From Bacillota bacterium (GTDB lineage: Bacteria > Bacillota > SHA-98 > UBA4971), in the NCBI GenBank assembly GCA_012842395.1, contig DUSX01000029.1, positions 109 through 64,108 of the forward strand: 64,000 nt of DNA, written 5' to 3'. The position numbers and the translations under genes are program-made. Under the pieces are notes generated by a model. That model saw only the letters and a program-made list of their open reading frames with translations, did no database searches and had not been told where the DNA came from. Below are positions 29,941 through 50,052 of the stretch, piece by piece; position 1 is the stretch's first letter; each line of letters opens with the position of its first letter.

Positions 29941-30714
29941 ATGATCCTTGTACTCGACATTGGCAACACCAACATCGTTCTGGGGGTTTACGAGAACACG
30001 CGCCTGGTGACAAGCTCCCGCATGGCCACCGACCGGCTGAAGACCGCGGACGAGTACGCCATGCTCATCCGAGACCTTTTTTCGTACCACGGGCTTGATT
30101 TCACCGCAATAGACGGCGCTGCCATCTCGTGCGTCGTGCCTCCCGTCATCGGTACATTCGAGGATCTTGTGAGGCGCTATTTTCACTGTGAGCCTGTGGT
30201 CGTGGAGCCCGGGATCAAGACTGGCATAGTCATACGTTACGAGAATCCCAAGGAAGTTGGGGCGGACCGCATCGTCAATGCCGTGGCGGCTTACGAGAAG
30301 TACGGCGGCCCAGTGATCGTGGTAGATTTCGGCACCGCCACGACGTTTTGTGCCATATCCGCGGCCGGCGAGTACTTGGGCGGGGCCATCGCGCCCGGCA
30401 TCGGCATATCGAGTGAGGCGCTGTTCGCGCGCGCCGCAAAGCTCCCCCGTGTCGAGCTCGTGAAACCGAGGTCGGTTATCGGGCGCAGCACAGTTGCAAG
30501 CATGCAGGCAGGCATAATCTACGGGACAGTGGGGCTCGTCGACGGGATAGTGAAGAGGATGAAGCTCGAGATGGGAGGCGATGCCCGCGTGGTGGCTACC
30601 GGGGGCTTCGCGCCGCTCATCGCGGAGGATTCATCCGAGATAGACGTGCTCGAGCCCAACCTTACCCTGGAAGGCCTGCGCATGATCTTCGAGAAGAATC
30701 GGCCGTGTCCTTGA
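29941..30714 (+). CDS. coaX: Type III pantothenate kinase
   Basis: [17 protein letters not shown]...[30 protein letters not shown]...AIAPG are CoaX motifs. AAGGAGGGG RBS. Confidence 0.9.
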
Positions 30715-30715
30715 T

Positions 30716-32908
30716 TTGGGGAGTGAACGGGGTCTGAGAAACTCAGCTCAGCAGCTCGAGAAAGCCATTACCGTAGGTCTTGAGGTAGCGGGCTCCCGGA
30801 GGTGGGAGGTCGAGGACTCCCTTGATGAACTCGACCGGCTCGCGGAGACGGCGGGTGCCGAGGTGGTCGGGAGGGTGGTCCAGAGGCGGGCGTCGCCTGA
30901 CCCCGCTACGTATATAGGCGAGGGGAAAGCCCGGGAGATCGCGGCCCTTGCGATCGTGGCCCACGCTGACCTGGTTATCTTCGATGACGAACTCAGCCCC
31001 GCCCAACAACGCAATCTCGAGGAGATCATAGGGATCAAGGTCATCGACCGCACCTGGCTCATCCTCGACATCTTCGCCTCAAGGGCCGCGAGCAAGGAAG
31101 GCAAGATCCAGGTCGAGCTCGCCCAGCTTTCTTACTTACTCCCGCGGCTCACAGGCAAGGGCGTCGAGCTTTCGAGGCTCGGCGGCGGCATCGGCACCCG
31201 TGGGCCTGGGGAGACGAAGCTCGAGACAGACAGGCGCCGGATTAGAAAGCGCATCGCGGTCCTCCGCGGCGAGCTCGCCGAGATAGCGGCGCGGCGAGGG
31301 CTGCAGCGTTCCCGCCGCAAGGAAGCGGGGATACCCGTGGTTTCGCTGGTCGGCTACACCAATGCCGGCAAGTCCACGCTCTTCAACGCCCTCACCGAGT
31401 CGCAGGTCCTCGCGGAGGACAAACTTTTCGCCACGTTGGACCCGACGATACGCAGGTGTCGCCTGCCGGGAGGCGGGGTGGTGCTCCTTGCAGACACCGT
31501 GGGCTTCATTCGTAAGCTGCCCCACGATCTCGTGGCGGCATTCCGCGCCACCCTGGAGGAAGTCGCCGAAGCCGATGTCATCTGTCACGTGGTGGACGCG
31601 AGTCACCCCGGCAAGGACGAGCAGTGTGCGGCGGTGAACGCGGTCCTCGCCGACCTCGGCCTTCAGGACAAGCCGATGGTCACCGTCCTCAACAAGATAG
31701 ACCTCGTCGAAGGGGACATCAAGAGAGAACGCTTGCGTGTGGAGCACCCCGGTGCGGTGCTGATCTCCGCCGCCGAGCGATGGGGCCTGTCTGACCTGCT
31801 TCGAGCGATCGAGGACACGCTTCCTCCGACGGGACGGCGAGGTGGCCCGCAAGCCGAGCCCGGTTCCCGCGCGGCAGTAAGCGGGGCGCATGCCTCAGGC
31901 GCAACTGAGCTACGCGGCGGTTCACGCGCCGTTTCCATCTCCATCGGCGATGTTGCTCTGGCGGCTCCCGTAGTGCTTGCGCCCATGGCGGGGGTGACCG
32001 ACCTCGCCTACCGGGTGCTCGCGAAGGAGATGGGGTGCGCTCTGGTATACACGGAAATGATCTCCGACAAGGCCCTCATCTTCCACAACGAGCGGACCTT
32101 CGAGCTCGTGCGGATCTCGGACCTCGAAAGACCCGTGGCGGTTCAGCTGTTCGGGAGCGATCCCGAGAGCATGGCGAGCGCAGCCGCCATCGTTCGGGAC
32201 CGGGTCCATCCCGACATCATCGACATCAACATGGGATGCCCGACGCCGAAGATTGTCAGGAACGGCGAAGGGGCCGCGCTCATGCGGGACGTGCCCCTCG
32301 CACAGGATATCGTCGCGGCTGTAGTCGGGGTGGCGGGGGTTCCAGTGACGGTGAAGATGAGAAAGGGCTGGGACAGGGAGCACGTCAACGCCGTCGAACT
32401 CGCGCAGGCGGTGGAGGCTGCCGGCGCGGCCGCCGTTGCGGTGCACGGTCGCACCCGTGACCAGTTCTATTCCGGCGAGGCTGACTGGAGCATCATCAAG
32501 GATGTGAAGGAGGCCGTCGGAATCCCCGTTATCGGCAACGGGGACGTCCGGTCGGGGGAGGACGCCGCGCGTATGCTCGAGGAGACGGGCTGCGACGCGG
32601 TTATGATAGGCAGGGCGGCGCTCGGGAATCCTTGGATATTCAGGGAAGTCGCTATCTATCTCGCGACAGGCCGGAAGGTGCCGCCGCCTTCGCTTGCTGA
32701 GCGAGCCGCCATGGCCATCCGCCACCTTGACATGATGATCGAGCTTTTCGGGGAGAAAAGCGCCGTTCTTCAGATGAGGAAACACGCAGCGTGGTACCTC
32801 CGCGGCATCCCCGGCGCGGCCCAGGCTCGAGTGCGGATAAACGCTGCGAAGACCAGGGCTGAGATGGTGGAAGCCGTGACCTCGGTCCTTGGTGACCCCT
32901 GGAGCTAA
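30716..32908 (+). CDS. Apparent in-frame fusion of GTPase HflX (N-terminal ~390 aa) and tRNA-dihydrouridine synthase Dus (C-terminal ~330 aa)
   Basis: Single 730-aa ORF. HflX part: N-domain plus G-domain ([28 protein letters not shown]). After a Gly/Arg/Ala/Ser linker, Dus part: [32 protein letters not shown]...[12 protein letters not shown]...[10 protein letters not shown]. Confidence 0.75.
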
Positions 32909-33131
32909 TTGAGGTTGCATCGGTCTCTGCCCCATTCCCGTCGGTTGCCGGGTTGCCGGCGTTGCACTCTGGGACGCCGCCACGATCAGGGCGCGCTTCG
33001 CCAAAACCCGAGTTTGCGTTTTCGGGAGCATCCTGCTAGAATGTGAGTGTGCACAATAATGTAAACATGGCTCCAGCGGGAATGCCGTCGGTGCGTGCTC
33101 GCGCTGGACGCGCACCGAAGGCAGACAGGGG

Positions 33132-33668
33132 GTGATGCGGCTGGAGCTCATCCGCATCGGCGATAAAGTCGTGGATAAGGCGCGGTTGTACAAGGCCATC
33201 GACAAGATCCTCGAGCTCCGCGTGAAGGGCCTCTCGCAACAGGAGACCGCGGAGCAGGTAGGCATCGACAGGGCTTTCGTGTCCCGCCTGGAGAGCCTCG
33301 GCGAGGTTCGTAAAGGCGCGCGCGTCGCGATCGTGGGGTTCCCGGTGGGGAACAAAGAGGAGATCCGCAAAGTAGCGGAGGAGGAAGGCGTGGATTTCGT
33401 CCTCCTTCTGAACGACGTTGAACGGTGGGCCTATCTCAGGGAGAGGTCGGGGCAAGAGGTCTTCAACGAGATCATGGCCATAATCACGAGGCTCAAGACA
33501 TACGACGCCGTCGTTTTCATAGGGTCCGACATGCGGGTGGGCCTTGTGGAATCCATTCTCGGCGACCGGGTGATCGGGATCGAGGTCGGAACGTCCCCGA
33601 TTAAGGGCGACCGTTATGTGGACCCGGAGTCCATCCGCAACATCCTTCGCAGCATAACAACGCCATAG
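33132..33668 (+). CDS. Hypothetical protein: N-terminal HTH (sigma-70 region-4-like) plus alpha/beta domain
   Basis: LSQQETAEQVGIDRAFVSRLESLG is a helix-turn-helix. The C-terminal half (ARVAIVGFPVGNKEEIRKVAEEEGVDFVLLLND...) is an uncharacterised alpha/beta domain. Confidence 0.5.
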   Translation: MMRLELIRIGDKVVDKARLYKAIDKILELRVKGLSQQETAEQVGIDRAFVSRLESLGEVRKGARVAIVGFPVGNKEEIRKVAEEEGVDFVLLLNDVERWAYLRERSGQEVFNEIMAIITRLKTYDAVVFIGSDMRVGLVESILGDRVIGIEVGTSPIKGDRYVDPESIRNILRSITTP

Positions 33669-33734: not shown

Positions 33735-34637
33735 ATGAAGCACGTTGTCAGCGTAAGTCTGGGCTCGTCCAAGCGCGACCACAAAGCCACGGTCATTCTG
33801 CTCGGCGAGGAAGTCGTGATCGAGAGGCGCGGGACCGATGGGGACATCCGGAGAGCTATTGATCTCATTCGAAGCCTGGATGGCAAAGTGGACGCCTTTG
33901 GCATGGGCGGCACGGATCTCTGGTTTTACGTGGGACGGAGGCGGTACATGGTTCGTGATGCGGTCCCGATAGCACGTGCTGCCAGCAAGACTCCCATCGC
34001 CGACGGGAGCATGCTGAAAGGCGTGATCGAGCGCAGGGCGGTCGAGTATATTCGTGACGAGATGAAGATGCCCCTCGCGGGCAAGAACGCTCTTATCGTG
34101 TGCGCCCTGGACAGGTTCGGCATGGCGTCAGCTCTCCTCGAATCCGGGTGTCACATGATGTACGGAGATCTGGCGTTCGGTCTCGGCATACCCATATTCC
34201 TGAGATCTCTTTCCACGTTCGAGACGCTTGTAACCGTCCTCATGCCGGTGATACGGCTTCTCCCCATCAAGATGCTATACCCTACAGGCAAGAGCCAGGA
34301 ACGCGTGGTGCCGAAGTTCGGGAAGGCGTACGGGTGGGCGGACATCATCGGGGGGGACTGCCATTTCATCAAGAAACACATGCCCGACGACCTCACGGGG
34401 AAGGTTATCATAACGAACACCGTCACCCGCGATGACGTGGAAGCGTTTAGAAAGAGAGGGGTGAAGACGCTGGTGGCGTCGACCCCAGAGATCGAGGGCA
34501 GGTCGTTCGCAACGAACGTCATGGACGCGGTGTTCGTTGCTCTGACTGGCCGGCGACCGGAGGAGTTCACGCCTTCGGACTACCTGGACCTCATCAGGCG
34601 ATTGGAGATGAAGCCCAGAGTGGAGACGCTGAACTAG
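33735..34637 (+). CDS. Hypothetical protein (uncharacterised two-domain alpha/beta protein)
   Basis: 300 aa. MKHVVSVSLGSSKRDHKATVILLGEEVVIERRGTDGD...ALIVCALDRFG...GGDCHFIKKHMPDDLTGKVIITNTV. No confident family assignment. Co-oriented with the upstream HTH gene. Confidence 0.5.
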   Translation: MKHVVSVSLGSSKRDHKATVILLGEEVVIERRGTDGDIRRAIDLIRSLDGKVDAFGMGGTDLWFYVGRRRYMVRDAVPIARAASKTPIADGSMLKGVIERRAVEYIRDEMKMPLAGKNALIVCALDRFGMASALLESGCHMMYGDLAFGLGIPIFLRSLSTFETLVTVLMPVIRLLPIKMLYPTGKSQERVVPKFGKAYGWADIIGGDCHFIKKHMPDDLTGKVIITNTVTRDDVEAFRKRGVKTLVASTPEIEGRSFATNVMDAVFVALTGRRPEEFTPSDYLDLIRRLEMKPRVETLN

Positions 34638-34804
34638 CCGGTCTTGCGGTCCTGACCGAGGCTTGACAACGGCGGGAGCACACGACATAATAATGGCATG
34701 CGAAAAGGGGCATCGCGCAACGGGCCCGGGCGCGCGAGATGGCGCCGGGGCAGGTTGCGCGATGTCCGGATGTACATGGGCCGGTTAAGGGAGGAACCTG
34801 CTTG

Positions 34805-36884
<2,080 letters not shown>

Positions 36885-49976: not shown

Positions 49977-50052
49977 GGGGACGTAGCTCAGTTGGGAGAG
50001 CGCGTGAATCGCACTCACGAGGTCGGGAGTTCGAATCTCCTCGTCTCCACCA
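49977..50052 (+). tRNA. tRNA-Ala: tRNA-Ala (anticodon CGC)
   Basis: Cloverleaf: 7-bp acceptor stem with G3:U70 wobble (alanine identity element). Anticodon stem CGTGA/TCACG with loop aTCGCAc. T-loop GGTTCGAATCC. Encoded CCA. Confidence 0.9.

Follow-up and report, generated by a model that had tools for sequence, protein, structure and literature searches.

An in-frame HflX–DusB fusion in one narrow clade of uncultured, high-GC Bacillota

The stretch of DNA analyzed here (hereafter the window: 64,000 nucleotides of a Bacillota bacterium, GenBank assembly GCA_012842395.1, contig DUSX01000029.1, positions 109 to 64,108 of the forward strand) contains a 730-residue open reading frame (ORF) in which the GTPase HflX is joined in frame to the tRNA-dihydrouridine synthase DusB. 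We put at roughly 0.74 the probability that this is a genuine bifunctional gene, formed by the merger of two adjacent, translationally coupled housekeeping genes, the two activities being those predicted from conserved sequence. The architecture is real, conserved, and previously undescribed; it is built from two well-known families and restricted to one narrow clade.

Domain content and conservation of the fusion gene

The ORF listing of the window gives hflX::dusB as one uninterrupted frame with a TTG start (Table 1), and neither a stop nor a frame change occurs in the window sequence between 31780 and 31980. Two NCBIfam equivalog models match it almost end to end: the HflX model TIGR03156 scores 489.1 bits (cutoff 216.75) over residues 17–368 (model positions 2–350 of 351), and the DusB model TIGR00737 scores 412.7 bits (cutoff 293.3) over residues 410–723 (model positions 1–313 of 319). 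With E-values of 1e-147 and about 1e-124, respectively, chance is ruled out for both matches. The DusA and DusC models remain far under their own cutoffs. Pfam partitions the protein in the same way, with GTP-bdg_N at residues 33–121, GTP-bdg_M at 123–201, MMR_HSR1 at 209–327, and Dus at 421–721. The initial annotation, drawn up from the DNA letters alone, had claimed a single 730-residue frame uniting HflX with a Dus-family enzyme, and the ORF is exactly as it described. The motifs it had listed are likewise all present. Invariant in every fused orthologue of our alignment are G1, G3, and G4 (NK[IM]D) in the GTPase, and PMAGVTD, NMGCP (with the catalytic Cys508), VKMR (with Lys547), HGRTR, and NGD in the synthase. 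The DusB module ends in the helical tRNA-binding domain (approximately residues 646–725). Pfam finds no match in the fusion protein to PF03486, the RdsA-type (HI0933/YhiN) family; the reductase half is a Dus TIM barrel.

The C-terminal domain (CTD) of HflX is missing from the fusion. PF19275 (HflX_C), which is found in most bacterial HflX proteins and lies outside the equivalog model, has no Pfam match in the fusion protein. In BLASTP, homology to the standalone HflX P0019 reaches no further than residue 369, beyond which P0019 runs on for 67 residues of CTD, and the final modeled HflX helix comprises residues 358–368. On these grounds, the view in the initial annotation that HflX is complete, C-terminal helical domain included, does not stand. 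Loss of the CTD is no bar to HflX membership, because CTD-less HflX is known from Sulfolobus: the S. solfataricus protein (SsGBP; 2QTF/3KXI, 364 aa) likewise lacks the bacterial CTD, and its three-domain core can stand alone, though it is archaeal, only 24–28% identical, and unfused. Relative to bacterial HflX (E. coli 5ADY; Listeria HflX/HflXr 8A57; Mycobacterium 8VK0/8KAB), the fusion is alike in its N-terminal, helical, and GTPase domains (42–50% identity) but carries a disordered tether and a whole DusB in place of the CTD that contacts the ribosomal stalk base. Its Dus half resembles E. coli DusB (6EI9) over the full length, in barrel motifs and helical domain (38–39% identity), but has no separate start codon and is produced solely as the end of an HflX polypeptide.

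An AlphaFold2 model of the fusion, built on a 53-sequence alignment, resolves two confident modules (mean predicted local distance difference test score, pLDDT, 83.6; predicted TM-score, pTM, 0.54). Values of pLDDT below 50 are confined to residues 1–10, a loop of the helical domain (152–161), and the linker (373–401). In Foldseek searches, the HflX half reaches a TM-score (TMt) of 0.72–0.76 to ribosome-bound HflX/HflXr, and the Dus half 0.91–0.92 to E. coli DusB 6EI9 over 306 residues. The linker itself, modeled as disordered, comprises about 30–37 residues; the initial annotation had recognized it and placed it at about 31810–31960, an extent slightly wider than the low-confidence segment (31832–31918) and the start of the DusB model match (31943) indicate. 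GC content at third codon positions is 0.60 in the linker as against 0.79–0.80 in the enzyme halves, while total GC is higher in the linker (0.72); this low third-position value is consistent with weak constraint apart from an open frame. The codon-position bias of the genome is not seen in the linker.

The identical 730-residue product occurs on 13 contigs (ERZ773286, 254 kb; DRR066659, from a biogas fermenter and recovered by two assemblers; SRR6179433; SRR6179408), which represent at least four independent sequencing datasets and different assemblers. Its 90% identity cluster has ten members, all 730 aa long, from Logan, ENA, JGI, and GEM. A search of 5.8 billion proteins further identified 16 diverged clusters with the fused architecture, at 64–99% identity, from Logan, JGI, ENA, and NCBI; all sixteen keep the frame despite many indels. 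Pairwise identity among fused orthologues averages 0.83 and 0.77 in the HflX domains; in the Dus half, the mean is 0.78 for the barrel and 0.70 for the helical domain, while the linker varies from 27 to 139 aa with an identity of approximately 0.20 and few hydrophobic residues. Because the linker sequences are this divergent, a systematic assembly error shared by all of them is excluded. In seven fused loci, the linker frame contains no stops in 335 codons, compared with 11 and 22 stops in the two alternative frames and an expectation of 13.4 for shuffled sequences (Poisson P ~2e-6, for loci that are partly non-independent). The linker is thus kept open by selection, which could not have been seen from the window by itself, since its open 34-codon linker would be expected to contain just 0.5 stops. 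The frame of the fusion had been taken as genuine in the initial annotation, which proposed looking for a missed stop or frameshift and for the same fusion in related genomes; the frame is intact across datasets, and the orthologues share it.

Six split-sized members of the 90% identity clusters (P0131, P0134, P0137, P0143, P0147, and P0157) were considered as possible polymorphic stops and rejected: all are in frame through the linker, and their lengths reflect contig-end truncations, downstream frameshifts, or calls from an internal Met. Gene names in public records vary. JGI labels the fusion either "GTP-binding protein HflX" or "tRNA-dihydrouridine synthase B", and the NCBI records (P0134, which is HHX26812.1, P0147, and P0157) call DusB only, from an internal Met; one such call begins inside the last HflX helix. 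The architecture has probably been overlooked so far because this annotation is inconsistent.

The fusion is rare. When 1.84 billion representative proteins were scanned exhaustively with HMMER, a single full-length fused representative emerged (P0015, 1014 bits), and the remaining matches are at single-domain level (at most 422 bits) with the exception of P0160 (504 bits). We do not accept the latter as another, more distant fusion: within this DusB, approximately 125 aa are repeated exactly in tandem, probably through an assembly artefact. P0018, an HflX from within the clade, may come from a chimeric contig, since its N-terminal ~85 residues look foreign; its tail is similar to the linkers of fused proteins. 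The PDB holds no chain spanning both halves, and, in the library searched, the four papers naming both HflX and dihydrouridine synthase include none on a fusion of the two, in keeping with the suggestion in the initial annotation that no HflX–Dus fusion had been described.

Origin from adjacent genes

The gene is a Rosetta-stone-type fusion of adjacent operon genes: related genomes carry the two as separate neighbors in the same order. In two sister Bacillota metagenome-assembled genomes (MAGs; GCA_034926675.1 and GCA_020047475.1; loci L090 and L100), coaX is followed by a separate hflX, encoding 441 aa with HflX_C (63% HflX identity), and by dusB (332–337 aa), which lies in a different frame and overlaps hflX by 23 bp (L090) or 4 bp (L100). 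Within the clade itself, one lineage (P0017; 11 contigs, of which L001–L003 from three JGI samples are described here) also has the genes split: hflX (415 aa) stops at a TAG, and dusB (331 aa) follows after a spacer of 51 bp, without a change of frame. All of these split operons share the synteny of the fused loci (coaX, hflX, dusB, HTH, "quinate 5-dehydrogenase", greA, lysS) but differ in having two genes, with overlap and CTD in the sister MAGs, and with an in-frame spacer and no CTD in P0017.

The spacer of the split lineage is homologous, in frame, to the linker of its closest fused relative (P0011), and the fused and split states can therefore interconvert by point changes. In L002, GAT TGA GGT GCA GAT aligns with GAT TCA GGC GCA GAT of the P0011 linker, so that the stop TGA stands opposite TCA; L002 additionally has GAGGTG located 11 nt 5′ of the dusB ATG, and the fused form lacks both. 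A search for CTD remnants in any frame of seven junction DNAs found none, with the last G-domain helix alone matching. This result speaks neither for nor against a linker that arose by frameshift within the CTD.

Adjacency of hflX and dus characterizes the clade. It was observed at 9 of 9 in-clade loci but at none of 80 diverse HflX loci (dus within 6 kb), the latter being standalone HflX genes from many phyla, drawn from a scan of species-representative genomes with the fusion alignment and hence by generic HflX motifs. Nor is it seen in Pelotomaculum thermopropionicum or Carboxydochorda subterranea. Two HflX loci from that scan gave unusually long tblastn matches, one in an Anaerolineaceae MAG (L041, 5370–6800, query residues 3–451) and one in a Betaproteobacteria MAG (L081, 6001–8824, 2.8 kb); neither includes a Dus match.

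Neighbor joining gives congruent trees for the two halves of the protein. All members of subclade A, to which the window belongs, are fused, while in subclade B the split lineage is sister to fused members with bootstrap values of 93 and 100. In subclade B, moreover, two genes of opposite orientation, for an ABC-transporter ATPase and a 259-aa protein, are inserted between coaX and hflX (L001–L003, 3848–5597; L087, 232–1215; L098, 477–2226); this insertion is absent from subclade A and the window.

In the window, the TGA stop of coaX lies 1 nt ahead of the TTG start of the fusion (30712–30718), and no obvious Shine–Dalgarno (SD) sequence precedes it. The position of this TTG, one base past the coaX stop, suggests translational coupling to coaX; together with the lack of another start in the first 45 codons and of an obvious SD, it suggests termination–reinitiation coupling across CoaX, HflX, and DusB. 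Under the history we propose, hflX would have been placed between coaX and dusB in an ancestor within a high-GC Bacillota group; in the lineage of the window, the HflX CTD would then have been lost, the two frames joined, and the start codon and ribosome-binding site of DusB lost.

Gene neighborhood and host

Every fused locus has the same order of genes: coaX, the fusion, an HTH protein of ~175 aa, a protein of ~300 aa, greA, and lysS. The initial annotation had placed the fusion where dusB lies alone in a conserved coaX–dusB–greA–lysS arrangement. The order is as it proposed, with two further genes before greA, but the nearest relatives have a separate hflX plus dusB at this site rather than dusB alone. 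The 300-aa protein of the window has no Pfam, NCBIfam, or PDB sequence match; it goes under the name "quinate 5-dehydrogenase" (QDH) and is widespread in Bacillota, and the block HTH, QDH, greA, and lysS is conserved out to Carboxydochorda subterranea. The true start of greA is probably an internal Met near 34805, since its orthologues are 157–159 aa long. Just 5′ of greA, a promoter-like site (34663–34691, + strand) matches at 11 of 12 positions (TTGACA, 17 nt, CATAAT), and because of it greA–lysS may be transcribed apart from coaX, hflX::dusB, and the HTH and QDH genes.

Table 1. Coordinates of the fusion gene, its parts, and its neighbors in the window
Feature	Position	Strand	Evidence and remarks
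coaX, type III pantothenate kinase	29941..30714	+	Pfam Pan_kinase, 1.2e-79
hflX::dusB fusion ORF	30716..32908	+	730 aa; TTG start; other start codons absent from first 45 codons
HflX N-terminal domain (aa 33–121) and helical middle domain (aa 123–201)	30812..31318	+	GTP-bdg_N (PF13167), 2.4e-36; GTP-bdg_M (PF16360), 3.8e-31
HflX GTPase domain (aa 207–369), with G1, G3 DTVGF, and G4 NKID	31334..31822	+	Pfam, NCBIfam, alignment, and model; last helix 358–368
Gly/Ala/Ser/Arg-rich disordered linker (aa 373–409)	31832..31942	+	pLDDT <50 for residues 373–401; DusB model from residue 410
DusB module (aa 410–723), FMN-binding TIM barrel and helical domain	31943..32884	+	TIGR00737; Pfam Dus, 1.4e-97; Foldseek
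HTH_3-like putative regulator	33132..33668	+	178 aa; synteny-conserved downstream neighbor
Protein named "quinate 5-dehydrogenase" by NCBI sources	33735..34637	+	300 aa; synteny-conserved downstream neighbor
greA	34739..35278	+	Pfam GreA_GreB_N, GreA_GreB
lysS, lysine--tRNA ligase	35283..36884	+	Pfam tRNA_anti-codon, tRNA-synt_2, on orthologous genes

Two long ORFs run antisense to the fusion, one of 482 aa opposite the Dus half (31922–33370, − strand) and one of 251 aa opposite the HflX half (31136–31891); nothing about either points to a gene, and high-GC coding DNA typically has stop-free antisense frames. Rfam returned no RNA element at the fusion locus, and the sole tRNA of the window is at 49977–50049. 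The window has a GC content of 62.8%. Its upstream part includes FliD, a GAF-PAS histidine kinase, Mfd, and a SpoVB-like protein, and its downstream part sugar-utilization genes; the locus of one relative contains the sporulation and division genes YabP, YabQ, and DivIC. The nearest cultured homologues of a neighboring protein belong to Thermaerobacter and Carboxydochorda (57–58% identity). The host is an uncultured, deep-branching, high-GC member of the Bacillota, and the samples carrying the fusion are biogas or fermentation reactors.

Function, alternative readings, and significance

The most probable product of the merger would be a three-domain HflX, a disordered tether of ~30 residues that has evolved very fast, and a complete DusB, the two enzymes folding independently on the flexible tether. 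Judging by conservation, both canonical activities are probably retained: the HflX module would bind the 50S subunit in a GTP-dependent manner and split stalled or vacant 70S ribosomes, and the DusB module would reduce uridines of the tRNA D-loop using NADPH and FMN. The main effect of the fusion would be obligatory 1:1 co-expression, together with a higher local concentration of DusB near ribosomes. The covalent link would be advantageous or near-neutral but not essential; the separate genes of one lineage within the clade argue that covalent coupling is not obligatory.

Several points weigh against reading the gene as a simple bifunctional merger. Conservation is the basis on which both activities are assigned, and ribosome binding or splitting could be altered, because the CTD that contacts the stalk base elsewhere is missing. 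A specific HflX–Dus interface may exist. No second hflX or dus is present in the 64-kb window, but the genome may carry one elsewhere. Lastly, the direction of change in the split lineage bears on the proposed history: a single ancestral fusion with a later fission is just as parsimonious as two fusions in parallel. We lean toward secondary fission, as the split HflX also lacks the CTD and has a disordered tail homologous to the linkers.

A different reading would give the covalent link a function beyond co-expression. HflX would dock on the 50S subunit and the tether deliver DusB to ribosome-bound RNA, with the fusion selected for substrate channeling. Possible targets are the deacylated tRNA that remains once a ribosome has been split and 23S uridines near the peptidyl transferase center (PTC), such as U2449 or U2500; the tether would leave from the usual site of the CTD, close to the stalk base, with the helical-domain loop in the PTC. 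In solved HflX complexes, this loop (here residues 152–161) does enter the PTC, the CTD touches the L7/L12 stalk base, and ribosomes with deacylated tRNA are bound or acted on by HflX (PMC12493154). Functional coupling is also favored by the overlapping hflX–dusB adjacency, which is older than the fusion and conserved in the sister group, and by the selection that maintains the fusion across a diverged clade; a disordered tether of 27–139 aa could span a ribosomal subunit. An rRNA target has some basis in the work of Toubdji et al., who showed that RdsA, rather than DusA, DusB, or DusC, makes D2449 in E. coli, and who noted that C. sporogenes contains m5D2449 and D2500 while lacking an RdsA homologue, for which reason Clostridia are postulated to have an rRNA dihydrouridine synthase of their own, as yet unidentified (PMC11317573).

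Against such coupling, the Dus half is an ordinary DusB equivalog that shows no divergence, its tRNA-binding helical domain is intact, and the classical Dus enzymes of E. coli leave rRNA unmodified (PMC11317573). RdsA (YhiN), the E. coli 23S D2449 synthase, is a flavin-dependent uridine reductase acting at the PTC and so has the activity envisaged, but its fold is unrelated (Rossmann, using FAD and NADH; PMC11317573), whereas the fusion is a classical FMN-dependent TIM-barrel Dus and not an RdsA member. Furthermore, the genes are separate in one in-clade lineage, the linker is unconstrained in length and sequence, and the adjacency was seen neither at any of the 80 diverse HflX loci nor in cultured genera related to the clade. 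We regard functional coupling on the ribosome as unlikely. A specific form of it is slightly less probable still: that HflX serves as a ribosome-targeting device, making the fusion (or the split operon) either the missing dihydrouridine synthase for 23S positions near the PTC in RdsA-less Bacillota or a tRNA-modifying quality-control enzyme acting on stalled ribosomes as they are split. A precedent for targeting by a fused domain comes from eukaryotes, where some Dus enzymes carry extra RNA-binding modules, such as the double-stranded RNA-binding domain of human Dus2 and the zinc fingers of Dus3; these modules are small RNA-binding domains, unlike a ribosome-binding GTPase.

It is similarly improbable that the one gene yields two proteins, whether as a polyprotein cut in the linker or with DusB also made by noncanonical internal initiation, so that the mature enzymes would be separate as they are in relatives. 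The linker is disordered, accessible to proteases, and unconstrained in sequence, and a sister lineage is viable with the genes split. However, none of the possible start codons (ATG, GTG, TTG) occurs in frame in the linker together with an SD sequence, which argues that DusB is made only by translation through hflX; the first start candidates after it, GTG420 and ATG424, lie within the first barrel strand and also lack an SD. No promoter or terminator above chance was found inside the fusion gene. Nor is there a conserved cleavage motif, linker identity being only ~20%. The avoidance of stops fits either one protein or two, but since in-frame stops are selected against, translation of DusB depends on read-through from hflX, and any separation would have to occur after translation. 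Finally, though a single 34-codon GC-rich linker can readily be open by chance, an artefact or pseudogene, in which a sequencing or assembly error or a recent mutation erased the hflX stop, is effectively excluded by the identical ORF in independent datasets, the sixteen diverged clusters that keep the frame, the invariant catalytic motifs with 70–83% identity in both halves, and the stop-free linkers.

To our knowledge, the physiological roles of both HflX and Dus, though each is universal, are poorly defined. The fusion and the hflX–dusB operon that preceded it represent the first genomic hint of a possible link between dihydrouridine synthesis and ribosome rescue or 50S maintenance. They also provide a candidate for a question raised in 2024, that of the enzyme responsible for rRNA dihydrouridine in Clostridia-like bacteria without RdsA. 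The interest of the gene would be high only if the ribosome-targeting reading is true, and is otherwise moderate. Even if neutral, the bifunctional gene provides a clean natural case of fusion from overlapping neighbors with domain loss (the HflX CTD) and a fast-evolving linker, in which nothing more than point changes and a linker indel sets the fused state apart from the split one, and it indicates that HflX tolerates the exchange of its stalk-binding CTD for a 36-kDa cargo.

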